Origin: Alphaproteobacteria bacterium
GTDB lineage: Bacteria; Pseudomonadota; Alphaproteobacteria; CAAHEQ01; UBA3637
Assembly (NCBI GenBank): GCA_015062245.1
Contig: SUVA01000001.1
Location: 12,856 to 76,855, forward strand
Direction of reading: 5' to 3'
Length of the DNA: 64,000 nt
The position numbers and the translations under genes are program-made. The notes below the pieces were generated by a model that saw only the letters and a list, made by a program, of their open reading frames with translations, had not been told where the DNA came from and ran no database searches. Shown here piece by piece: positions 11,440-64,000 of this stretch (the stretch's first letter is position 1; every line of letters starts with the position of its first letter).

Positions 11440-12831
11440 ATGAAGCATTTGTCACTATTGACAACATTGTTATTGTCATCATCTATGGTTTATGCGGGAT
11501 GGCTAACCGAAGATTATAAAGGTGATTGCTTGGAAATGATGTGTGATTGTGTGGAAAAAGACGGAATTGGATATTGTTGTCCGTCAGGGACTTCGTTTAA
11601 CGGAAAAGGAGATGCCCATATTGAATATACGCCCTGCAAGTGTTTGGGCGCAAATACATACTATAACACGACCAGCCAAAAGTGTTTATCAAAACCCACA
11701 TGCAATCCATGTCAAAAATTGAATGTAGCCACCGGTACTTGTGTGCCGGATACCTCCAAGAACAATCTGGCAGTCGGCACATGTGGAAAGTGCAACAATG
11801 GTTCGGTTATTACAGATATGACAAAGGTAACCCCCTGTAAGACCTGTAATACCACAAACTGGACATTGACAAATAGAGCCAATGGTCAGGCAGTCGGCAC
11901 ATGTGGAAAGTGCAACAATGGTTCGGTTATTACAGATATGACAAAGGTAACCCCCTGTAAGACCTGTGATACTACAAACTGGACATTGACAAATAGAGCC
12001 AACGAAACACAGGTTCAGGATGTTTGTCATATGTGCAAAGACGGCAATGTTGTATTGAAGGATTCAACAAAACAATTTATTTCCAATAATACTTGTGTTG
12101 AATGTTTGGCTGATTATGGAACAGGTAAATCCGGTGCCTGTACAACTGAAGCAAAGCCATTGTGTCAAAATAATGTATGTCAAGCATGCCCGGCCGGACA
12201 AATTTGGAATGGAACCTCTTGCGCAACACCAAGAATTTGTACTATTTTGTATAAACAAAAAAATAAAGTTGGAAATTCTAGTTACATATCTGGCGAATGT
12301 TGTAGCCCTGATCAAAAACTTGTATCAAGTACAGGTAATACACTTTTTAATGGTTATGATTTAAATAAGACAAAATACGGATGTTGTTCTGCCGATAAAG
12401 CTTATGGAGATAGCAAATGTTGCTCTTCAAGTCAAGAACCAACAAATGATGGTTGTTGTTCTTCAAGTAAAGTGTATACCAAAAACGGCATTAAAAAATG
12501 CTGTGATGGAACGGTGTCTAATAATAAAACAGTGTGTTGTACGAATAAAATAATTACTGTTGATTTTCAGGAAAGTTACACTTTTAAGTTTGATGGAAAA
12601 GTCCATGTTAAAACATATTCTGTTGGTGGAAAACATCACAGCGGTTATTGTCGTGTTTATTTAAATGGAAAACAGATAAATAAACTAGACACAGGTGGAC
12701 ACCAAGAAACAACGATAAATAAAGAAGCAGATATAACTGTCAAAAACGGCGATCGTATTTCTGTCGATGGTCATCGTGGCAGAGGCTGGCAAGAATACAT
12801 AAAAATCACATATCCCGTTTGCGACGGATAA
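11440..12831 (+). CDS. Cysteine-rich secreted protein with CC doublets, an internal 40-aa tandem repeat and a Cys-poor C-terminal beta-rich domain
   Basis: Signal peptide (MKHLSLLTTLLLSSSMVYA); many CxxC and CC motifs (CCSSSQEPTNDGCCSSSK); C-terminal about 100 aa lacks Cys. Confidence 0.65.
   Translation: MKHLSLLTTLLLSSSMVYAGWLTEDYKGDCLEMMCDCVEKDGIGYCCPSGTSFNGKGDAHIEYTPCKCLGANTYYNTTSQKCLSKPTCNPCQKLNVATGTCVPDTSKNNLAVGTCGKCNNGSVITDMTKVTPCKTCNTTNWTLTNRANGQAVGTCGKCNNGSVITDMTKVTPCKTCDTTNWTLTNRANETQVQDVCHMCKDGNVVLKDSTKQFISNNTCVECLADYGTGKSGACTTEAKPLCQNNVCQACPAGQIWNGTSCATPRICTILYKQKNKVGNSSYISGECCSPDQKLVSSTGNTLFNGYDLNKTKYGCCSADKAYGDSKCCSSSQEPTNDGCCSSSKVYTKNGIKKCCDGTVSNNKTVCCTNKIITVDFQESYTFKFDGKVHVKTYSVGGKHHSGYCRVYLNGKQINKLDTGGHQETTINKEADITVKNGDRISVDGHRGRGWQEYIKITYPVCDG
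11769..12002 (+). repeat. Near-perfect 120-bp tandem duplication (2 copies, 2 mismatches) inside the Cys-rich gene
   Basis: ggcagtcggcacatgtggaaagtgcaacaatggttcggttattacagatatgacaaaggtaaccccctgtaagacctgt... recurs at 11769 and 11889; encodes AVGTCGKCNNGSVITDMTKVTPCKTC(N/D)TTNWTLTNRAN. Confidence 0.9.
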
Positions 12832-36658: not shown

Positions 36659-36748
36659 GGATAGGTGGCCGAGTGGTTGAAGGCGCACGCCTGGAAAGTG
36701 TGTTTAGGGGCAACTCTAACGGAGGTTCGAATCCTCTCCTATCCGCCA
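36659..36748 (+). tRNA. tRNA-Ser (anticodon GGA), CCA encoded
   Basis: GGATAGG acceptor stem, long variable arm, anticodon loop CUGGAAA, T-arm GGAGGTTCGAATCCTCT, 3' CCTATCC-G-CCA. Confidence 0.9.
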
Positions 36749-36754
36749 GTTTTA

Positions 36755-36778
36755 GCACCCTGCGGGGTGTTTTTTTTT
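36755..36778 (+). terminator. tRNA-Ser terminator
   Basis: CACCC-TGCG-GGGTG hairpin plus T9. Confidence 0.6.
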
Positions 36779-36794
36779 ATGAGAGGATGAGAAC

Positions 36795-36937
36795 CGACAA
36801 GGAGGTTCGTTTGCGAATAAAATGAGCAGACGCCGTCAGGCGGTCCGAGTTTACGAGGACGAGGGCTTGCCCCGAGCAATCCTCTCCTATCCGCCAGTTT
36901 TAACACCCTTTTGGGTGTTTTTTTATGAGAGGATGAA
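36795..36937 (+). repeat. Partial duplicate of the tRNA-Ser 3' end plus its terminator, interrupted by about 65 bp (att-like scar or tRNA pseudogene fragment)
   Basis: GGAGGTTCG at 36801, a 65-nt insertion, then AATCCTCTCCTATCCGCCAGTTTTAACACCCTTTTGGGTGTTTTTTTATGAGAGGATGA, which repeats 36729..36793 almost exactly. Each copy is flanked by the inverted pair ATCCTCTC / GAGAGGAT. Confidence 0.6.
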
Positions 36938-37411: not shown

Positions 37412-38605
37412 TTACTTACATAACACACTGCTCAGCGTGAAATCCCATCCATCACGACCTTGTTGAGAACCTGTTCCGTTCATATACATCGGATAATTAC
37501 AATCCGAATATATAGTATTTATGCAAGAAACCCAACCATGCGCAGCTATTGAACAGGATCCAAATAATTCTGCACAACCCAATTCTTCGGGTTTGACCAT
37601 TTTCTCTTTTCCACCACATATGGCCACGCCATCACTGAAAGAAACTCCTCCGGAAATATTAACTTGAGTTCCTATCCGATTCCCTTCAGAATCTTTTATT
37701 TCTGTACAAGAAGATGGATTTTCAGCACAATAATCCTCATATTTTGGAAGCTCTTTGTTCGGATTTAAACAAATACATTTTTCCAAACTATTATCACAAA
37801 CTGCATACGCACCAGCACGCATTTCTTCCGCTGTGCATTCTGCGCAATCATACACACCACATGCAACAGCATTGCTGGATACAGCACAAGACCAACTACC
37901 ATTTACTGATTGATACCAATATCCCTTTAAAGCATTACAGCATTCTTCACCTGTACAGTCTTTTGTTCCAAATTCACATTTGCCATTCGAACAAGTGGTT
38001 GTTTTACCATCGGCGGTGGTGCAAGAATCTGTTGATGAAATATCACCTGTTTCAGAATCACAACATTGAGAGTCATATCCCACACAACAATCTTTTTTAC
38101 ATTCACCGCCACACCATTTATAGCCGGCAGCTTCGCACTTTCCACCTGTTGCGTCATCGTTATAATCAGCGGCGACTTTGTCGCTGGATAAATTATTATT
38201 ATAGGTTAAGGTCAATGTTGTTTCATTACATTCGGCTTTGCGAACCATGCCGCCTGACATCTTTTCCATTTGCTCACATACGGCCGAATCCATACCGGTG
38301 ATTTCCATTTTAAATTGTTCGTCATTGACTTTTTCCGGTGTGCCAAATGTTCCATATTTACCATTGCCAAAATCTTGAACATTTAGGGGTTTATCGGTTA
38401 GAATTTGGGAGGATATGGTGGTGGCAAGCATACTGGCCTGATGTAATAATTCATTCGCTTTGTGTTTTTTCATGGCGACACCATAACCATATACACCACC
38501 CACGGACAAGACACCCACGATGGCCAGTACGCCCAGCATTTCAACCATACTGCGCCCCTTTTGGCTTCTTTTATAGTTTTTGTTTGTTTTATTTTTTACT
38601 GACAT
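37412..38605 (-). CDS. Type IVb prepilin-like protein with large cysteine-rich C-terminal domain (candidate minor pilin / tip adhesin)
   Basis: Start at 38605 with RBS GAAAGGAGTC. 17-aa basic leader ending in Gly (MSVKNKTNKNYKRSQKG), then RSMVEMLGVLAIVGVLSVGG with Glu at +5, resembling TcpA/CofA N-terminal helices. About 380-aa mature part has some 40 Cys including CC doublets. Confidence 0.6.
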   Translation of the reverse strand: MSVKNKTNKNYKRSQKGRSMVEMLGVLAIVGVLSVGGVYGYGVAMKKHKANELLHQASMLATTISSQILTDKPLNVQDFGNGKYGTFGTPEKVNDEQFKMEITGMDSAVCEQMEKMSGGMVRKAECNETTLTLTYNNNLSSDKVAADYNDDATGGKCEAAGYKWCGGECKKDCCVGYDSQCCDSETGDISSTDSCTTADGKTTTCSNGKCEFGTKDCTGEECCNALKGYWYQSVNGSWSCAVSSNAVACGVYDCAECTAEEMRAGAYAVCDNSLEKCICLNPNKELPKYEDYCAENPSSCTEIKDSEGNRIGTQVNISGGVSFSDGVAICGGKEKMVKPEELGCAELFGSCSIAAHGWVSCINTIYSDCNYPMYMNGTGSQQGRDGWDFTLSSVLCK

Positions 38606-38650: not shown

Positions 38651-38740
38651 GTCATTCCCCACTTGATGGGGCATCCATAAGGATTTAATTCTATGGATCT
38701 TCGTGTCAAGCACGAAGATGACAGTGATGGGGTGGAATGA
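38651..38740. repeat. MITE-like element of about 90 bp with terminal inverted repeats (GTCATTCCCCAC ... GGGGTGGAATGAC), copy 1
   Basis: The 5' 27 nt GTCATTCCCCACTTGATGGGGCATCCA and the terminal GGAATGAC recur at 63489..63575; internal hairpin CTTCGTG-tcaag-CACGAAG. Confidence 0.45.
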
Positions 38741-38754
38741 CAAATACAGTTTAA

Positions 38755-38797
38755 CCCACTGTAATCATACAGTGGGTCGGTTGTGCGTTCGCACAAC
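38755..38797. promoter_or_regulatory. Two adjacent perfect 8-bp-stem hairpins upstream of the pilin-like gene
   Basis: CCCACTGT-aatcat-ACAGTGGG and GTTGTGCG-tt-CGCACAAC. Confidence 0.4.
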
Positions 38798-38815: not shown

Positions 38816-38832
38816 TGTGTGTGTGTGTGTGT
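38816..38832. repeat. (TG)8 dinucleotide tract about 210 nt upstream of the pilin-like gene start
   Basis: atgtgtgtgtgtgtgtgtgtac seen directly; a candidate slipped-strand site. Confidence 0.9.
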
Positions 38833-39120: not shown

Positions 39121-41064
39121 TTATTCTGATAAAGTTTCAATCTCTATGCGATTTTTATGGATATAAATAAAATAAATCTTATTTCCTTGGGGGATTAGTT
39201 TATCAATTCGGCAATGCCCACTTTGAATCGGTAAAACGGCAAAATCGGCATTTGCGCAATAATCCGGTGATAAAGCAATCCGTTTACTTTTTATTTCAAC
39301 TATATTATCCTTTATTTTTTCCGACCGATAAAAGCCCAGTTTGTTTTGCCATAAAGTTTGTATCCAATCTTGACCATTTTCATTCGCATAGAAACGGCCA
39401 TTTTGAATATAAGCGATACTTTGGCCTTTATCCGCCACCATCATTATGGGATAATCTGAGTTAAATGCCGTCAATGTGCCCATTAAAATAAGAATGACAC
39501 CCATGATTTTACCCCAGTATTGCCAAAGACAAATAAAGATAATGCCAAAAATGATAAGGCTTAAACCGACCACGCTGAATGAAGGAAGGCTGATTTCGGC
39601 AAAGGGTAATTTTGAAATCCAATCTGCCATCTGTTCAATCCATTCAATAACTGTTCCCGCCCATTGAAAAAGGGCTGAATCCATTTCAAAGGGCATCAAC
39701 AAACATCCGATAAACAATAACGGCATAATAATCAGGGAAAATAAAAAGCTGAACGCAAGATTGCCCAAAATACCATAAGGTGTTATTTGATTAAAGTGCC
39801 ATATAATCAATGGTGTCAATCCCAATGAAATAGCCACACCCAAGGCGCAAAATTCACAAAAATGACGGATATATTTATTTTGGTTGGGCATAAATTGTTT
39901 GAATTTTTCATGAACGCTGACTAAAATTAAAACCGATAAAAAGGAAAGTTGAAAGCTGATAGACATTAAATTTTCCGGCCTGAATATCAACATACAAAAA
40001 CCGGCCAAAATAATTGTTCTGACAGAAAACGTTTTGCGATTGACCAATATCCCCAAAAACACCAAAGCAATCATTAAATAAGAACGAACGGCCGGAATTT
40101 GAAAGCCTGACAACGCCAAATAAAAGCCTGTGCCAATCAATGCAAAAACAGCGGCAATCTTTTTGGTATTCACATACAATGTTAAACGACCACACACAAC
40201 ACCCAATCCCCGAATCAAGAAAAACAAAAATCCCGCCAACAAAGCCATATGAAAGCCGGAAACAGATAAGACATGGACAATCCCTGAACGGCGATAAATT
40301 TGATATAATTCAGGGCTGACCAATCTTTGTTCACCGGTAATCAAAGGTGTGATGATACGGGCCTGATTTTCGGGTAGTATTTGAAAGACATGTTCGGTAA
40401 TTTGATGGCGCAAGCGTTGAAAAATGGTTGGCTTTGCATTTATATCCCGAATATCCAAAACCTGAACAACTTTGCCGATAGCACCGATTTTTTCAAAATA
40501 TAATCTTTTGGCCTGAGAGGTATGAAAGGGTGCTTTAATGCTTACGGGTGGCACCAAATTGACCTTTAATTTGACCCGTTGACCAACCTTTAACAACGGT
40601 TCCAAATTATCGTAATGCAGACGAATTTTATCGGGTTGCTTGATAACGCCCATCGGATAAGAGATGTTATTTAAAATCAAAATCTGTTTATCGGGTAAAA
40701 CAGTATTATCCGTAATTGTGGCTACAATAATTGTATTGGAAAGTTTTTGATTTAAAACTGGATGTGCCACCATCTGATAACGCAAATGACATATTGAACA
40801 ACCCAGCATCACAAATGTTATAAAAAGCATAAAACAAAAGACAAAATCTTTCTTATAAAATAAAATCAATCCCAGCACGGCCAAAGGTAAAATAATTATA
40901 CTTAAAATCGTGGGGAAGTGATAAAAGTATAACAATATCCCCGTCATAAATGCCAAGAAAGACCATATCAGGTGTTCCTGAAACATAGATTTAATTTCTG
41001 CTTTTAACTGTTTAATTTTGGGATGATACAGGGACAACATGGGGGATATTATTTTGAATTTCAT
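39121..41064 (-). CDS. comEC: DNA internalization competence protein ComEC/Rec2 (no C-terminal metallo-beta-lactamase domain)
   Basis: Polytopic membrane protein with Competence domain motif (ITGEQRL ... HVLSVSGFHMALLAG). True start may be an internal Met (e.g. 40986), since the track start overlaps the upstream lipoprotein gene. Confidence 0.8.
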   Translation of the reverse strand: MKFKIISPMLSLYHPKIKQLKAEIKSMFQEHLIWSFLAFMTGILLYFYHFPTILSIIILPLAVLGLILFYKKDFVFCFMLFITFVMLGCSICHLRYQMVAHPVLNQKLSNTIIVATITDNTVLPDKQILILNNISYPMGVIKQPDKIRLHYDNLEPLLKVGQRVKLKVNLVPPVSIKAPFHTSQAKRLYFEKIGAIGKVVQVLDIRDINAKPTIFQRLRHQITEHVFQILPENQARIITPLITGEQRLVSPELYQIYRRSGIVHVLSVSGFHMALLAGFLFFLIRGLGVVCGRLTLYVNTKKIAAVFALIGTGFYLALSGFQIPAVRSYLMIALVFLGILVNRKTFSVRTIILAGFCMLIFRPENLMSISFQLSFLSVLILVSVHEKFKQFMPNQNKYIRHFCEFCALGVAISLGLTPLIIWHFNQITPYGILGNLAFSFLFSLIIMPLLFIGCLLMPFEMDSALFQWAGTVIEWIEQMADWISKLPFAEISLPSFSVVGLSLIIFGIIFICLWQYWGKIMGVILILMGTLTAFNSDYPIMMVADKGQSIAYIQNGRFYANENGQDWIQTLWQNKLGFYRSEKIKDNIVEIKSKRIALSPDYCANADFAVLPIQSGHCRIDKLIPQGNKIYFIYIHKNRIEIETLSE

Positions 41065-43130: not shown

Positions 43131-43807
43131 TATCGTCCCCCTGTTTTGACGGCAATTTGTTGCAAATTGGCACTGCTTAAACCGGCCTGAGTGGAACGGT
43201 CTGATTTTTTCTTGCCCCCTGAACCTGTCATTTCACCGTTGGGAATGTAAATTTTACCCAAAGGCACAGGAATGTATAAAGTTTGCGGATGGCCCACACC
43301 GGCCGAAGTTAAAATTTGTTGATTGATATATTTGTGAATCAATTCATGAAAGGGGTGAATGGGAATCAAAACCAAATTATCCATATCCAAATTGCCCCCA
43401 TATAACAACGGATATTTTAAATGCACCGTCCAATTGGTGGGTAAAATCCCCTTGGACATATAAAAGATACTTTCTTCGGATATATCAGCACTGCGTAAAT
43501 CGTTCACATATTGGGCGACTAAATCTTTTAAAAAAAAGTGTTTAAGTTTTTCCAGTTTTTGATGAAATTCAGCTTCATTTATCGTATGCGGATAATAATT
43601 GGCCGACATCAATTCCATGCCAGCAAAATTTTCCTGTTGAAATAAATCCACCCAATAATCTTGATTTTTTATATCCGAATCCAACCCCTCCATCAAACCA
43701 TCCAAACCAATGGAATCCGTTTGTGTTTTGGGTGCCGAATTATCCATCAACTGGTCCCAGTTGTCATAAATTTCATTGCCGTCCAATTCTGTCAGATTTT
43801 CATCCAT
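43130..43807 (-). CDS. Acidic hypothetical protein co-operonic with the T4CP (candidate adaptor/chaperone)
   Basis: 225 aa; D/E-rich N-terminal half; Cys-free; overlaps the T4CP stop by 8 nt. Confidence 0.45.
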   Translation of the reverse strand: MDENLTELDGNEIYDNWDQLMDNSAPKTQTDSIGLDGLMEGLDSDIKNQDYWVDLFQQENFAGMELMSANYYPHTINEAEFHQKLEKLKHFFLKDLVAQYVNDLRSADISEESIFYMSKGILPTNWTVHLKYPLLYGGNLDMDNLVLIPIHPFHELIHKYINQQILTSAGVGHPQTLYIPVPLGKIYIPNGEMTGSGGKKKSDRSTQAGLSSANLQQIAVKTGGR

Positions 43808-46088
43808 TTAAATCATCCTTGGGTAGTGGTGGTTGAAAAGTCGGTGCTGAGGTCGGTGGTGCAAAAACCCCCTGACCCTGAGGCGGTAAAATTGCCTGAA
43901 CGGGTTGCGCATTATTTTGAAGTTGAATTTGTTGTTCTGTACTTTCTTGCGGTTGAGGTTCTTCCGATTTTTGTTGTTGGTTTTCCGGCGCCCGTCTGTC
44001 CACAATCCATTGGGGAATATATGGGGCGGTCGGAATCTGAGTCTTTTTCAAAAAGCCTTTATCCAAATAATACCGTGGTGCATCGGCCAAAATCGGATGC
44101 GATAAGAACCCTTGGAACAAAACATACTGTTTTAACATATCCAAACTTAAAATATCCGAAGCACTGACCACATCTGATTTTTGCAATTGACGGGATACGT
44201 TTTGCGAAAAGTCAAACATTTTTTGTCCTCCGCCTTCTTGTTTGGATGTGCTTTTAACTTCAATCGTTTTGGAACCAATCATTTTTACAAAACGTTCGGC
44301 TGTTTGTTCGTTGTTTTGGGATAAAATAACTTTTGCCGCCGTTGTTGAAATAATTGTTTCCAAATCGTCTTTACCGTATTGGCCGGAAATTTGGCCTAAA
44401 TCCTGCCCGATTAACAAATAGGCCACCTTTTGTCCACGACCAACAGCCGGACCGTTTTTCACACAATCCAGTTTTGGCATTTGCGGGAATTCGTCCAACA
44501 CGAACAAAACAGGACAAGGCCCACATTTTTTGCCGTCATTACCCACATACCCCGGCGGATTAGCAATTAAAAATGAACTGACCAATTCCACAAAGATACC
44601 CGTAATCACGTTCAAAGCACGGGCATCCACTTGGTTAATGGACAAATAAACGGAAATCGGTTTGATTTTGCCGTCCGCCGGATCCACCATACCACGCAAA
44701 TCACGGAAAGTAAAATCACTGAATTTGGTTCGTTCTTTTACAGCCGCATTTTTAAAAATACTGATACCTGACAAAGCGGTTGATAAAATTGACCCACGTT
44801 CTTTATCGGGCGTACTGGATAACTGATTTAATTCGGCAATAGCCCGACGGGCATAAGCAAAGCGATTACTTTCATTCACGGCCGCATCCAACACGTCCTT
44901 CATGGGATCGGCCATCATGGCCATTTGATCGCCTTCATCGGAACGGCGTTTAATATCGGCGGCGATTTTCATCTGCATATCGGTCAGCCATTCCAAAATC
45001 ATGGCAATACACGGTTCATGCCCGTGCCAGATTTCAGGCAAACCTTCCCACGTACCGACAGGCGCATAGTTATTTAAATTCAGCTGTCCTTTTTTCAAAG
45101 CATCCAAAGCAATCAAGGCACTGTTATCGGACATATCGGCATAATAGGTGGCCAAAACATTGGCGTCTTCTTGATCAAAAGAACCTTCGGATAACTTGTT
45201 GATAAAATAATCGTTGGCACGGGCCCGTTCGCATTTGCTGGCAATAAAGTGCAAAAAACCACTCATGGCATTACGACCTGTTTTACACCAGTGCGGATCT
45301 GCTCCCCCTTTGGGTTCTTCCACCAACACGGCCACCATAGAGTCAATATACATATCTCGGGCCGGTCCCAACGGGGGCAATGCCGTGGGCGATAAAGGAT
45401 TCCAGCTGGGATAAAAGACACCGTTTTGCGGTTCGTCTTGGGCGCCCCAGTTGATGATAAAAACAGGGCCTATTTTATTACGATAACCTGATGTTTGATA
45501 GCATAATTCGGGTTTCACGTCATTGACAATAATACTTAAAGAATCAGATTCAAAAATCGTGGGAATAACCACGCCGGCGGTTTTACCCGTTCCCGGCGGT
45601 GCCACCACCAAGGCGGATAAAGTGTTGGGCATTTTTAACAAACGCCCCTTAAAACGCCCCAAAACGCAACAGAATCCATCAAACAGCCCCATCTTTTTAA
45701 TATCCTGATAGGAGGCCAAACGGCCACTGCCAAAAACGGTGGACAGATTGGAATATGGGTTCGTATACAATCCGACAAAAATAATAATAGGAATAACGGC
45801 AATCGGAATAAACGGCAAAAACATTGCCACAGGCACAGGGGAAATTTCACGAAATTGTTTTATCCAATTGGCATAGGTAATAATAATTTTGCTGGGATGT
45901 AAAAATGCCTTTGACCAAAAATCCCAAGCAATGCCAACCAACGAAATATCCCCCGATAACAACCAATGTGTGATTGGTAAAATCAACAAAGACAATATCC
46001 ACGAACAAAACAATGCAAAAAGAACAGAAAGTATAACATGAGAAATATACTTATTTTTTTCTTTATATTGATCGTCTGCCATTTTCAT
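43800..46088 (-). CDS. Type IV secretion coupling protein (VirD4/TraG/DotL family ATPase)
   Basis: Two N-terminal TM helices, then FGSGRLASYQDIKKMGLF. Walker A VVAPPGTGKTAGVVIPT (compare VirD4/TraG APTRSGKGVGxVIPT) and Walker B VLFVLDEFPQMPKL. About 60-aa Q/P-rich disordered C-terminal tail. Confidence 0.8.
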   Translation of the reverse strand: MKMADDQYKEKNKYISHVILSVLFALFCSWILSLLILPITHWLLSGDISLVGIAWDFWSKAFLHPSKIIITYANWIKQFREISPVPVAMFLPFIPIAVIPIIIFVGLYTNPYSNLSTVFGSGRLASYQDIKKMGLFDGFCCVLGRFKGRLLKMPNTLSALVVAPPGTGKTAGVVIPTIFESDSLSIIVNDVKPELCYQTSGYRNKIGPVFIINWGAQDEPQNGVFYPSWNPLSPTALPPLGPARDMYIDSMVAVLVEEPKGGADPHWCKTGRNAMSGFLHFIASKCERARANDYFINKLSEGSFDQEDANVLATYYADMSDNSALIALDALKKGQLNLNNYAPVGTWEGLPEIWHGHEPCIAMILEWLTDMQMKIAADIKRRSDEGDQMAMMADPMKDVLDAAVNESNRFAYARRAIAELNQLSSTPDKERGSILSTALSGISIFKNAAVKERTKFSDFTFRDLRGMVDPADGKIKPISVYLSINQVDARALNVITGIFVELVSSFLIANPPGYVGNDGKKCGPCPVLFVLDEFPQMPKLDCVKNGPAVGRGQKVAYLLIGQDLGQISGQYGKDDLETIISTTAAKVILSQNNEQTAERFVKMIGSKTIEVKSTSKQEGGGQKMFDFSQNVSRQLQKSDVVSASDILSLDMLKQYVLFQGFLSHPILADAPRYYLDKGFLKKTQIPTAPYIPQWIVDRRAPENQQQKSEEPQPQESTEQQIQLQNNAQPVQAILPPQGQGVFAPPTSAPTFQPPLPKDDLNG

Positions 46089-61624: not shown

Positions 61625-61706
61625 AAGTCGCCCAAACGGACGACTTATCTGAACTGGTAGAGAACGTCTTGCCCCGCACGGACTGAAAAAGACAAAAAAA
61701 TAACCT
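61625..61706 (-). repeat. Conserved 3'-UTR/terminator module of the MORN-like cassette, degraded copy 1
   Basis: Shares CACGGACTGAAAAA and the terminal hairpin plus T-run with copies at 62543..62660 and 63585..63694; the first hairpin AACCTCTACC is half-lost here. Confidence 0.6.
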
Positions 61707-62324
61707 CTATCGAGCTTTTAAATCTTTTAATTTTTTCTGTCTCGCCATACGTTCGACTTTTCTTTCTGCTTTCTCCTGTTCTGTCTTTGGAAAAACTTCT
61801 CTATAGTCACGCACAAGTTCTTTTTTACGCCCTTTGCTACAAGAACTGTCCAAAAGTTTTGTCAGTGTTCTTCTTTTTCGAATGTGTCTAAATCCAAAAA
61901 TAGGGATAGAAACCCCTTTATCTATAACTTTTCCATCTCGATATCGAACAAAAGCCCCTTCAGGGCGTATACCTATACCATCATAACGCCCAACGTACTT
62001 ACATTTTATATCCTTCCCATTTGAAGCGTATATTTCTCTTAAAATTTTACCATCTGAACGAGAACTCTCCTTTGCCCAAACTTTTCCACCATCATAATAC
62101 TCTGTATAAAGCCACTTTCCATCCTTATGTACAAATTTAGACTCTATTTCACCACTTTCATCAAAATTCAAACTCTCCCCATCAAGAAGGCCATTTTTGT
62201 CTACAATACGAATTCCTTCAATCCTCCCCTTCCCCAAAAGAACATCCCAAAAACTTCTGGGGGAATAATATTCTATTTTTTGAATATGACCATCCTTTAA
62301 CTTTTTTCTAACTGTTTCACGCAT
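61707..62324 (-). CDS. MORN/YwqK-like repeat protein, paralog A
   Basis: Start at 62324 (MRETVRKKLKDGHIQ) with RBS GAAAGGAAAT. Shares N-terminal box, G-periodic repeats (YxxxG, DGK) and the C-terminal REYREVFPKTEQEKAERK...KxLKA box with 62678..63319. Confidence 0.55.
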   Translation of the reverse strand: MRETVRKKLKDGHIQKIEYYSPRSFWDVLLGKGRIEGIRIVDKNGLLDGESLNFDESGEIESKFVHKDGKWLYTEYYDGGKVWAKESSRSDGKILREIYASNGKDIKCKYVGRYDGIGIRPEGAFVRYRDGKVIDKGVSIPIFGFRHIRKRRTLTKLLDSSCSKGRKKELVRDYREVFPKTEQEKAERKVERMARQKKLKDLKAR

Positions 62325-62542
62325 TCTATTTCCTTTCAATTGAATTAAGTCATATCTCAATTAAAACAAATTTTCCCCATAAAGTCAACAGTTTTTCGAA
62401 TTAAAATTTCTGAGAGAAATTTTAGCTATCCAGATGATAAGATATTGATAAATAAGGATATTTCTTAATTACTGGTCCGTGTAAGCATCATTTTTGGCCT
62501 TCTTTGATACAACCTCACACGGACTTGTATAACTTATTGATT

Positions 62543-62660
62543 TTAAAAGAAAAAAGCGCCTTCATCAGGCGCTATCCAAGAACTGGTGGAGGAGGTCTTG
62601 CAGGACACGGACTGAAAAATCACAAAGAACAACCTCTACCATCACGCAGGTAGAGGTTAA
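62543..62660 (-). repeat. 3'-UTR module copy 2: stem-loop AACCTCTACC/GGTAGAGGTT, then 60-nt spacer, then rho-independent terminator
   Basis: Read on the minus strand after the gene B stop: AACCTCTACC-tgcgtga-TGGTAGAGGTT ... CAGTCCGTG ... AGCGCCTGATGAAGGCGCT-TTTTTT. Confidence 0.65.
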
Positions 62661-62677
62661 AATTTGAAATAATTTTT

Positions 62678-63319
62678 TTATTTTCCTTGAGCTTTTAACT
62701 CTTTTATTTTTTTCTGTCTTGCCACACGTTCGGCTTTTCTTTCTGCTTTTTCCTGTTCTGTTTTGGGAAAAACCTCTCTGTATTCCCTAACCGTGTGTTT
62801 TTTATTTCCTTTGCTAGTCACACTATCTAGAAACTCAGTCAGTCCTTTTCTATCCTTAATGGTTTTTCCATTTGTACGAACACCTTTATCCACTACCTGT
62901 TCATTCTGATCATATTCAACAAAATGTCCATCGGGTATCCATGTTGTTCTAATTGAATCCTCAAAATGCGGATCATATGAATATTTTTGATATCCTGTAA
63001 ATTCTTCTTCTTTTGTTCCGTCTGGTCTATATATATACGTTGTTCTTGCATGGTCGGATTTTTTACTGTGAAGCTTTCCTTTTGTATCATAATTTTCATC
63101 GGATATTAATAGGTTTTTCTTATACACACATCTACTAGAAATACTCCCGTCTTTTCTATAGCTAATACATTCTCCATCTTTTTTACCGTTTTTATCAAAG
63201 ATCATAATATCTTCAATTTGTCCTCTTCCCAAAAGAACATCCCAAAAACTTCTTGGATGATAATAATATGTCACCTGTATATGACCATCTTTTAACTTTT
63301 TTCTAACTGTTTCACGCAT
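62678..63319 (-). CDS. MORN/YwqK-like repeat protein, paralog B
   Basis: 213 aa; RBS GAAAGGAATATTAAATG; same N- and C-terminal boxes as paralog A with a divergent middle. Confidence 0.55.
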   Translation of the reverse strand: MRETVRKKLKDGHIQVTYYYHPRSFWDVLLGRGQIEDIMIFDKNGKKDGECISYRKDGSISSRCVYKKNLLISDENYDTKGKLHSKKSDHARTTYIYRPDGTKEEEFTGYQKYSYDPHFEDSIRTTWIPDGHFVEYDQNEQVVDKGVRTNGKTIKDRKGLTEFLDSVTSKGNKKHTVREYREVFPKTEQEKAERKAERVARQKKIKELKAQGK

Positions 63320-63488
63320 TTAATATTCCTTTCGGTTTAATCGATCTAGGTTTTTATTAAAACAAAAGTTCACCTTATAGTCAACAGTTTTTTGAAATAT
63401 ATGGGATAAATTTTTGATTTCCCGAAGCTCGGATATTGATTTCAAAGGATTTTTACACACTTGCACACGGACTTGTCCATTTTTATCT

Positions 63489-63575
63489 GTCATGCCCCAC
63501 TTGATAGGGCATCCAGTGGCTATATATTCCTTATTGTGTACTTACGCATTTGATTCCCGATCAGGTCGGGAATGA
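63489..63575. repeat. MITE-like element copy 2 (GTCATGCCCCACTTGATAGGGCATCCA ... GGGAATGAC)
   Basis: Same 27-nt 5' end and GGAATGAC terminus as 38651..38740; internal hairpin TTCCCGA-tcaggt-CGGGAA; sits about 170 nt upstream of the paralog B start. Confidence 0.45.
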
Positions 63576-63584
63576 CTCTAAGTA

Positions 63585-63694
63585 AAAAAAGCGCCGTTTT
63601 CAGGCGCTATCCAAGAACTGGTGGAGGAAGTCTTGCATAGCACGAACTAAATTTCATAAAAAATAACCTCTACCATCGCGTAGGTAGAGGTTGA
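63585..63694 (-). repeat. 3'-UTR module copy 3
   Basis: AACCTCTACC-atcgcgt-AGGTAGAGGTT hairpin, then terminator AAAGCGCC-gttttc-AGGCGCT. Confidence 0.6.
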
Positions 63695-63697
63695 AAT

Positions 63698-64000
63698 TTA
63701 TACACGCCCCTGCTTCACAGTACTTTGAATACGCATTTTTTCGGCACGGTCTTTATCAATTATTTTTTGCATTTCTTCTGCACTTATATTTTTGACTTTT
63801 TGTCTTACTCCTTTATTTATTTCAACCATCTTTCCTCCAACCATTTCAATTGTATCTGGAGAAGTAAATTGGTAAACAGGTGTTGCTTCCATAGTTGTAG
63901 AGTATACCGCATAGGAATCTAGCCCCAACAGGGAACCTTCAATCCATTCAAAAGGTTTGTTTCCCTTTTCTCTAAAAACTACTTTTCTTTCATGTTCAAT
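63698..64000 (-). CDS. Third paralog of the cassette family, 3' part only (gene runs past the window end)
   Basis: C-terminal KDRAEKMRIQSTVKQGRV* resembles the K/R/E-rich tails of paralogs A and B and is followed by the same 3' module; the reading frame stays open upstream of the track's first Met. Confidence 0.3.
   Translation of the reverse strand: MEHERKVVFREKGNKPFEWIEGSLLGLDSYAVYSTTMEATPVYQFTSPDTIEMVGGKMVEINKGVRQKVKNISAEEMQKIIDKDRAEKMRIQSTVKQGRV

Follow-up and report, generated by a model that had tools for sequence, protein, structure and literature searches.

Inward-facing pairs of NTS/SRM-class hairpin modules as candidate Ssn nuclease sites in an uncultured alphaproteobacterium

Introduction

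The classical dRS3 repeat of Neisseria has been extended to a longer motif, the Neisseria Transformation Sequence (NTS), CGTCATTCCCGCGMAVGCGGGAATCYRG, and the NTS has been placed in a wider class named "Ssn-related motifs" (SRM) (Chenal et al. 2025, Nat Commun, PMC11893778). The enzyme that recognizes it, SsnA, is a 94-aa single-domain GIY-YIG protein (cd10448) that binds the hairpin only as single-stranded DNA (ssDNA) and in one orientation, works on ssDNA rather than RNA, and makes its cut a few nucleotides upstream of the hairpin (PMC11893778). The three bases before the palindrome (GTC) are needed for cutting while the C after it is needed for binding (PMC11893778). Copies of the motif typically stand on either side of the genes for such enzymes (ssn), the system of N. 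meningitidis reduces transformation by NTS-flanked DNA, and the genomes of Rickettsia and Wolbachia are SRM-rich (PMC11893778). Here we describe two loci in a 64,000-nt stretch of DNA from an uncultured alphaproteobacterium (GCA_015062245.1, contig SUVA01000001.1, positions 12,856 to 76,855; hereafter "the window", with position 1 its first letter) in which hairpin modules of this kind stand in inward-facing pairs, and we consider it likely that these pairs are candidate Ssn sites.

A second described arrangement bears on these loci. In Neisseria, pairs of dRS3 repeats around "RS" spacers of 19-214 bp make up the Neisseria intergenic mosaic elements (NIMEs), and isolated dRS3-RS-dRS3 units exist as well (Bentley et al. 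2007, PMC1797815). NIME arrays are strain-variable, lie near surface-protein and pilS loci, and were in 2007 thought to be specific to Neisseria; dRS3 itself is a target of phage integration (PMC1797815).

Results and Discussion

Anatomy of the two units

A first-pass annotation of the window had read 38651..38740 and 63489..63575 as two copies of an 87-90-bp miniature inverted-repeat transposable element (MITE) sharing a 27-nt 5' end. The shared end was confirmed. The 27-mer GTCAT(T/G)CCCCACTTGAT(G/A)GGGCATCCA occurs at 38651-38677 and 63489-63515 with 25/27 identical positions (2 differences), and when up to 3 mismatches were allowed these were its 2 window matches, with none elsewhere in the window and 0.00 expected from 100 dinucleotide shuffles. 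Chance is excluded as the source of the repeat. Internal hairpins and differing internal sequence, which the annotation had also reported, are present in both copies. The inverted 8-mer that had been taken for a terminal repeat fared less well. The sequence GGAATGAC does close both stretches, at 38734-38741 and 63569-63576, which places the annotated ends 1 base short, but by itself it is not significant (4 window matches vs 2.2 expected) and in copy 1 it lies within a fragment of a module.

What is repeated is an oriented hairpin module of 27-29 nt and not a MITE of 87-90 bp, as the two copies share this module only and no element body. The module consists of YGTC, an AT-closed stem of 8-9 bp, a CYTGA loop, the complementary stem, and then ATC. 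When we scanned the window for GTC(A/T)(C/T) followed by a hairpin, we obtained four GTCAT modules with CYTGA loops, and these form two inward-facing pairs; a relaxed module pattern gave 3 window matches vs 0.01 expected. The 3' end of copy 2 is a full inverted module (the reverse complement of 63552-63576 is GTCATTCCCGACCTGATCGGGAATC) that departs from the 5' copy at positions that remain complementary. The true inverted partner in copy 1 is internal, at 38694-38722 (reverse complement GTCATCTTCGTGCTTGACACGAAGATCCA). The units and their modules are as follows.

Unit 1, 38651-38722 (72 nt): module M1 (plus strand), 16-nt spacer, module M3 (minus strand)
M1, 38651..38677, plus strand, left end of unit 1: GTC-ATTCCCCA-CTTGA-TGGGGCAT-CCA, with one stem mismatch (T.C)
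Unit 1 spacer, 38678..38693, AT-rich: TAAGGATTTAATTCTA
M3, 38694..38722, minus strand, inverted partner of M1: GTC-ATCTTCGTG-CTTGA-CACGAAGAT-CCA, with a perfect 9-bp stem
Remnant of a further module, 38723..38741 (19 nt), minus strand, without hairpin: reverse complement GTCATTCCACCCCATCACT, holding the terminal GGAATGAC
Unit 2, 63489-63576 (88 nt): module M2 (plus strand), 34-nt spacer, module M4 (minus strand)
M2, 63489..63515, plus strand, left end of unit 2: GTC-ATGCCCCA-CTTGA-TAGGGCAT-CCA, with one stem mismatch (C.A)
Unit 2 spacer, 63516..63549, AT-rich, unrelated to the unit 1 spacer
M4, 63550..63576, minus strand, inverted partner of M2: GTC-ATTCCCGA-CCTGA-TCGGGAAT-CAA, with a perfect 8-bp stem

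The gap between the palindromes is 22 nt in unit 1 and 40 nt in unit 2, and in unit 1 the spacer and the ATCCA tails of M1 and M3 together give a central hairpin (ATCCATA/TATGGAT). M3 is like M1 in its loop (CTTGA) and flanks (GTC...ATCCA) while its stem is unrelated. All four window modules retain the head GTC, the palindrome closed by AT and the C on the 3' side (YGTC-AT...AT-C), and so does M5, a further module found in a sister strain and described below. As ssDNA, M3 and M4 fold with z scores of -6.3 and -3.2, and the DNA folds of the whole units are strong (z -4.6 for unit 1 and -3.4 for unit 2).

Integron attC sites, oriT and CRISPR were also considered for these repeats and were dismissed on sequence, since GTTRRRY cores and an integrase are absent and the spacing is not regular.

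Selection for base pairing in the stem

We aligned seven module sequences from this one organism, namely M1-M4 of the window together with the variant M1, M3 and M5 of sister strain L223. Across the seven modules the 9-pair stem is 96.6% paired and 5 of its 9 pairs have changed on both sides. The resulting covariation score was reached by 0 of 500 shuffles, and pairing fell to 20-53% when one partner was slid by 1-3 columns. The stems thus vary between modules by compensatory changes, with loop and flanks constant.

Pairing is equally evident in other organisms. The pattern that we used to search public genomes (given below) has four N positions at which complementarity is not required, and among 137 hits columns 6:22 are Watson-Crick in 135, with four pair types (T-A, C-G, G-C and A-T), and columns 10:18 are likewise Watson-Crick in 135. 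Covariation, which the first-pass annotation had named as a check on its reading, is therefore strong, and the module occurs well beyond the two copies in the window.

Relatives in other genomes and adjacent GIY-YIG genes

When one genome per species was scanned with the pattern GTCATNCCCNAYYTGATNGGGNATC, at least 120 stretches matched, against about 1 expected by chance as estimated from the size of the collection. By their titles, the listed genomes include Patescibacteria groups (Uhrbacteria, Magasanikbacteria, Peribacteria, Saccharibacteria), Bacteroidales, Pedobacter, Alpha- and Gammaproteobacteria, Sulfuricurvum, Sulfurimonas, Nitrospirales, Chloroflexota/Dehalococcoidia, Planctomycetia, Armatimonadota and others. 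Many of the listed genomes, which are labelled as several phyla, carry the M4 25-mer unchanged. A metagenome scan for the window's own variant gave 88 loci, none from this organism and most with 45-55% GC; because these loci belong to other organisms, they say nothing about the number of copies across the host genome. The counts of module arrangements and of adjacent genes given next refer to the 208 loci made up of the 120 listed genome loci and the 88 metagenome loci.

The listed genomes often show the layout seen in the window, with a forward CYTGA-loop module, a short variable spacer and an inverted module, and modules also occur singly, in tandem and back-to-back. Neighbouring modules in the 208 loci are arranged as follows.

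Inward-facing (plus then minus): 73, the commonest arrangement
Outward-facing (minus then plus): 53
Tandem, plus strand: 40
Tandem, minus strand: 28

Gaps within inward-facing pairs are mostly 6-44 nt, and the window gaps of 22 and 40 nt fall within this mode. In other genomes the canonical Neisseria NTS (GTCATTCCCGCGAAAGCGGGAATCCAG) is a frequent partner of the module: the partner in 13 inward-facing pairs is exactly GTCATTCCCGCG(A/C)A(A/C/G)GCGGGAATC(C/T)(A/G)G, which is the published NTS core, and in 23 further pairs a different module, with a loop of 4 nt, takes this place.

The gene that accompanies the modules elsewhere codes for a small GIY-YIG nuclease and not a transposase. In 14 of the 208 loci (6 of the 120 listed genome loci and 8 of the 88 metagenome loci) we found 15 single-domain GIY-YIG open reading frames (ORFs), and 12 of the 15 have inward-pointing modules on either side of the gene or across its ends, among them ORFs on contigs whose modules carry the CCCCACTTGATGGGG stem, as in the window. 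Two representative ORFs of ~95-106 aa gave whole-length matches to Pfam GIY-YIG (E 3e-13 and 5e-17). We call an ORF Ssn-like when it matches a profile built from the motif-adjacent GIY-YIG ORFs, an assignment made at the level of Pfam GIY-YIG and not of cd10448. A search of the PDB gave no SsnA structure, and only the UPF0213 protein EF2693 matched, weakly.

Several further arrangements were noted in these sets. Same-direction tandem arrays of modules occur with periods of 34, 49 and 37 nt (L204 1862-1954, L209, L143 1914-2184 and L121 1968-2180), and in L048 2523-3041 a 124-nt composite of a CYTGA module and an exact NTS is present in tandem as four to five copies. After the module, TCCTT stands in 51 of 75 contexts of the metagenome set. 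The module is also present in 34 stretches of IMG/VR viral contigs (L237-L270), 11 of these contigs sharing the context ...gtaacgtaacaacgGTCATTCCCGACCTGATCGGGAATCcaggaatttgacc...; none of the 34 stretches has an Ssn-like gene beside the module.

Gain and loss of whole modules

The unit 1 locus differs between strains by a complete module. In strain L223 it reads fragment, M5 (GTCATTCTCGGACTTGATCCGAGAATCCA), a 10-nt linker, M3, spacer and a variant M1 (M1') with a perfect stem, so that the difference from the window is a 39-nt indel of exactly one module (M5) plus linker, bounded by TGTCAT. The downstream protein and the flanks are identical to those of the window strain. Strain L224 differs again upstream of M3. 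A second sign of turnover is that unit 2 is missing from the spacers of the neighbouring tandem paralogues. Unit 2 with 20 nt of flank on each side showed no strain polymorphism across 12 contigs from at least 10 different samples.

Neither unit 1 nor unit 2 is bordered by a target-site duplication, a check that the first-pass annotation had called for. We further compared 69 non-redundant inward-facing units from other genomes, in which the lengths of flanking direct repeats equal the expectation from randomly re-paired flanks; the flanks of these units show no preference other than Y at -1 and, as its mirror image, R at +1.

The modules as candidate Ssn sites

The window modules share several features with the NTS/SRM-SsnA system, whose repeats are semi-palindromes of 20-50 nt that can fold into a hairpin and in which selection maintains the pairing. 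In both, the hairpin is oriented, its palindrome being AT-closed, immediately preceded by GTC and immediately followed by C; the repeats are intergenic; and inverted modules stand around a segment. In other genomes the module shares a unit with the exact NTS core and flanks GIY-YIG genes of ~95-106 aa. There are also differences: the window loop is CYTGA (5 nt) whereas that of the NTS is GMAV, stems vary freely within this organism, the window modules lie just outside the published search sequence, and the modules here enclose a 16-34-nt spacer and not a gene, with no ssn gene in ~90 kb. The units also resemble NIMEs, in that short GC-richer palindromes enclose AT-richer arbitrary spacers (here 16 and 34 nt and unrelated to each other), the number of repeats differs between strains (here the 39-nt module indel), and the location is beside surface-protein or pilin-type loci. 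Unlike dRS3, which is strictly a 20-bp ATTCCC-N8-GGGAAT, M4 is ATTCCC-N9-GGGAAT and M1, M2 and M3 differ in their arms; the window also has no long arrays, and the host is an alphaproteobacterium.

We therefore regard both loci as likely to be inward-facing pairs of NTS/SRM-class hairpin modules across an arbitrary AT-rich spacer, and as candidate Ssn sites. The best-supported reading of their layout is that of a dRS3-RS-dRS3 (NIME)-like unit, which would be a gene-less version of the module-ssn-module cassettes. The modules probably act, or once acted, on ssDNA as recognition sites for an Ssn-type nuclease. We propose that when the DNA becomes single-stranded during replication, transformation or conjugation, a module would fold and be bound in one orientation by a nuclease of the Ssn family, a small protein with GIY-YIG as its single domain, whose cut would lie a few nucleotides 5' of GTC. 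With the modules inverted within each unit, the cuts are predicted to fall just outside the unit and on opposite strands. Modules would be gained and lost as whole units, and would be selfish or domesticated sites of genome dynamics and not transcripts. If such an enzyme is encoded elsewhere in this genome, the four sites may be cut by it and may thereby affect recombination, transformation or expression. They could equally be relics, as two of the four stems carry a mismatch.

Several observations weigh against this interpretation. No Ssn-like ORF is present in the window and adjoining contigs (~90 kb), where the sole GIY-YIG signal is a marginal one from UvrC, and the density of modules is low (4 in ~80 kb). 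M1 and M2, each with one stem mismatch, fold weakly as DNA (z -1.2 and -1.9). M1-M4 fail the published SRM sequence HGTCWYN(0-2)YYVSBRHN(0-5)WNVSBRGN(0-2)RNCYNB, which has 0 matches in the window. In Neisseria, SsnA activity was abolished by a change in the stem that kept the hairpin (PMC11893778), and one enzyme working on five different stems would therefore need another mode of recognition. Finally, the support for turnover from the absence of unit 2 in the paralogous spacers is qualified: the segment from terminator to anchor (the 13-mer ACAAGTCCGTGTG) is 87 nt longer where the 88-nt unit 2 is present, but this empty-site comparison is not clean because the flanks are ~45% identical and a second indel of ~42 nt lies nearby.

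We do not take the failure against the SRM sequence as a refutation. Our implementation of the expression accepted both the canonical NTS and NTSvar, each window module fails it at one position near the loop, and it is matched by M5 of strain L223 and by 58 of the 296 modules with a CYTGA loop taken from other loci. The CYTGA class thus lies partly inside and partly outside the published definition, and published SRM genome counts may be underestimates for the same reason.

A bolder possibility, which we put forward as speculative and rather doubtful, is that the CYTGA-loop modules represent an Ssn class of separate specificity, with an enzyme that reads the loop and the GTC/C flanks and leaves the stem free, the gene-less pairs being non-autonomous elements moved in trans by a GIY-YIG ssDNA nuclease. 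It is suggested by the occurrence of five stems in one organism and by the identity of the M4 25-mer across genomes labelled as different phyla. Were it true, the system would be a hydrolytic analogue of the REP/RAYT system discussed below, and the pairs in the window would remodel the leader or promoter of a pilin-like gene with a (TG)n tract that varies between strains. Should a single enzyme accept any stem, the class would be of practical interest for programmable cutting of ssDNA.

The NTS/SRM-Ssn system itself is known, having been described in 2025, and the window repeats would belong to it. The present analysis extends it by a CYTGA-loop class that the published motif captures only in part, by NIME-like units in an uncultured alphaproteobacterium and, going by locus titles, in many other phyla, and by free stem covariation in one organism with whole-module turnover within a species beside a pilin-like surface-protein gene.

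Setting of the two units

The genes around the units are housekeeping genes. Unit 1 lies downstream of tRNA-Arg and ComEC, and unit 2 lies among tandem paralogues. The first-pass annotation had placed both copies 50-170 nt upstream of minus-strand gene starts; the upper figure holds for unit 2 (170 nt, ATG at 63319), whereas for unit 1 we measured 45 nt (ATG at 38605). The features that border the units are as follows.

37412..38605, minus strand: 397-aa Cys-rich protein with a prepilin-like N-terminus (KGRSMVEMLGVLAIVGVLSV) and without family assignment; its ATG at 38605 is 45 nt from M1
63590..63692, minus strand: a pair of terminator-like hairpins belonging to the paralogous gene upstream; unit 2 starts 13 nt past the T-run of the second

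Unit 1 is probably inside the 5' leader of the pilin-like gene. Downstream of unit 2, a promoter-like TTGACT-N17 box of the next paralogue was read by eye from the aligned spacers and was not flagged by a scan. Since it follows two terminator-like hairpins and lies upstream of this box, unit 2 is probably not transcribed with either gene. Among the Pfam assignments for genes in and around the window there is no transposase, integrase, recombinase or family of the RAYT/Y1_Tnp type.

Alternative explanations and comparison with other repeat families

The hairpins might instead be cis-regulatory RNA or DNA of their neighbours, for example a 5'-UTR element governing translation or stability of the pilin-like mRNA or a 3' stabilizer or terminator of an upstream gene, the first of which recalls the structured regulatory RNA that the first-pass annotation had allowed for. 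The position of unit 1, 45 nt from the start codon and probably in the leader, would suit such a role, as would the RNA folds of both strands, which beat those of shuffles (z -2.8 to -3.6), and it is general knowledge that repeats of the repetitive extragenic palindromic (REP) type have been co-opted as mRNA stabilizers. We nevertheless think it improbable. No Rfam family matched, even at E<=1, no T-runs follow the hairpins, and unit 2, between terminator-like hairpins and a promoter-like box, is probably untranscribed with either gene. The module moreover occurs in both orientations, in all arrangements of neighbouring modules and across many phyla and gene contexts, and SsnA, for its part, binds ssDNA. 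An arrangement of Shine-Dalgarno sequence, hairpin and ATG, suggested by TCCTT after the motif and often CAT before it, was rejected because an ORF of at least 60 aa was opened in only 1 of 75 contexts.

To a similar degree we doubt that these are REP-like repeats, or repeats like those of bacterial interspersed mosaic elements (BIMEs), handled by another hairpin-binding enzyme, whether a RAYT (Y1 transposase) or a recombinase of the IS110/Piv type such as targets Neisseria dRS3. The annotation's phrase "REP-like" was apt in spirit, as the unit is repeated, structured, intergenic and palindromic, with signs of gain and loss. REP/BIME-RAYT systems likewise have oriented palindromic units that are intergenic and stand head-to-head, tail-to-tail or in tandem, and that are presumably bound, as hairpins in ssDNA, by a small enzyme of their own whose gene is flanked by the repeats. 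This BIME-like architecture of oriented palindromes in mosaic arrays without target-site duplication, the role of dRS3 as a known phage integration target (PMC1797815), and the lack of an Ssn gene near the window copies all speak for such an enzyme. The enzymes differ, however, an HUH Y1 transposase in the one case and a GIY-YIG hydrolase in the other, and in the annotated context we saw no RAYT gene. The REP head is of the GTAG type, whereas the conserved 5' flank of the window modules is GTC(A/T). No transposase or recombinase family was assigned in or around the window, and it is the small GIY-YIG gene that recurs beside modules elsewhere, in loci that were screened with an Ssn-type profile only.

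The reading with which the annotation began, that of classical MITEs as non-autonomous derivatives of insertion sequences with a DDE transposase, bearing terminal inverted repeats and moving by cut-and-paste, is largely refuted, and we hold it to be very improbable. The units are of a suitable size (72-88 bp) with inverted ends (TGTCAT...ATGACA), and unit 2 looks like an insertion when set against the paralogous spacers. Yet target-site duplications are absent from both units and from the 69 homologous units, the two units have no internal sequence in common, and the supposed inverted repeats are autonomous, self-contained hairpin modules that elsewhere stand alone, in tandem or back-to-back. 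No related insertion sequence or transposase is among the Pfam assignments in and around the window. Correia elements and bacterial MITEs are similarly small, with inverted ends and a position upstream of genes, but they have a conserved body and target-site duplications, neither of which was found here; the duplication of Correia elements is TA. As general background, Rickettsia and Wolbachia likewise carry palindromic repeats in host-associated Alphaproteobacteria; Rickettsia palindromic elements (RPEs) are ~100-150 bp long and are often in-frame insertions in genes. For the annotation of the window, the reading as candidate Ssn sites means that the two units are non-coding repeats and not genes, riboswitches or transposon ends.

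Further observations in and around the window

The window has a G+C content of 40% and a two-piece tmRNA of the alpha type. At the DNA level its L31 gene shares 75% identity with that of a metagenome-assembled genome labelled Alphaproteobacteria, and L31 was the sole match in a synteny comparison with the related locus (L023). Genes identical to those of the window are also present in metagenome contigs of several JGI, ENA and Logan samples.

Near unit 1, a (TG)8 tract lies at 38816-38831, ~210 nt upstream of the pilin-like gene, and has 9 repeats in strain L223. On the gene strand it is flanked by TTGTAC and TAATTT hexamers, and it could be a phase-variable promoter spacer. Between this tract and unit 1, at 38747-38797, are two more hairpins, GTTGTGCGAACGCACAAC and CCCACTGTATGATTACAGTGGG (gene strand), whose stems are conserved, as strain L223 differs in their loops only. 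Three genes related to DNA uptake or transfer lie within 9 kb among the housekeeping genes: the prepilin-type Cys-rich protein (37412-38605), ComEC (Competence/DUF4131, 39121-41064) and a coupling protein of the VirD4/TraG type (43800-46088). The ComEC and pilin-like neighbours of unit 1 recall the Neisseria case, though two loci are too few to test an association.

The tandem paralogues around unit 2 span 61650-64000 and continue in L001 (4900-8700) as at least 4 genes of 205-265 aa with a period of ~1 kb and 73-84% DNA identity, each followed by two terminator-like hairpins; one of them has a weak MORN_2 match. The sequence AGTCCGTGT is repeated in direct and inverted orientation in their spacers, which hold 5 of its 8 window matches.

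Two further duplications were noted in the window. The 3' end of tRNA-Ser(GGA) with its trailing hairpin (36730-36783) is duplicated 148 nt downstream at 36878-36931 with 87% identity, and this partial duplication resembles the scar of an element integrated at a tRNA. At 11766-12002, two head-to-tail units of 117 nt, 97% identical and spaced by 120 nt, lie inside a 463-aa ORF (11440-12831) with no Pfam family.

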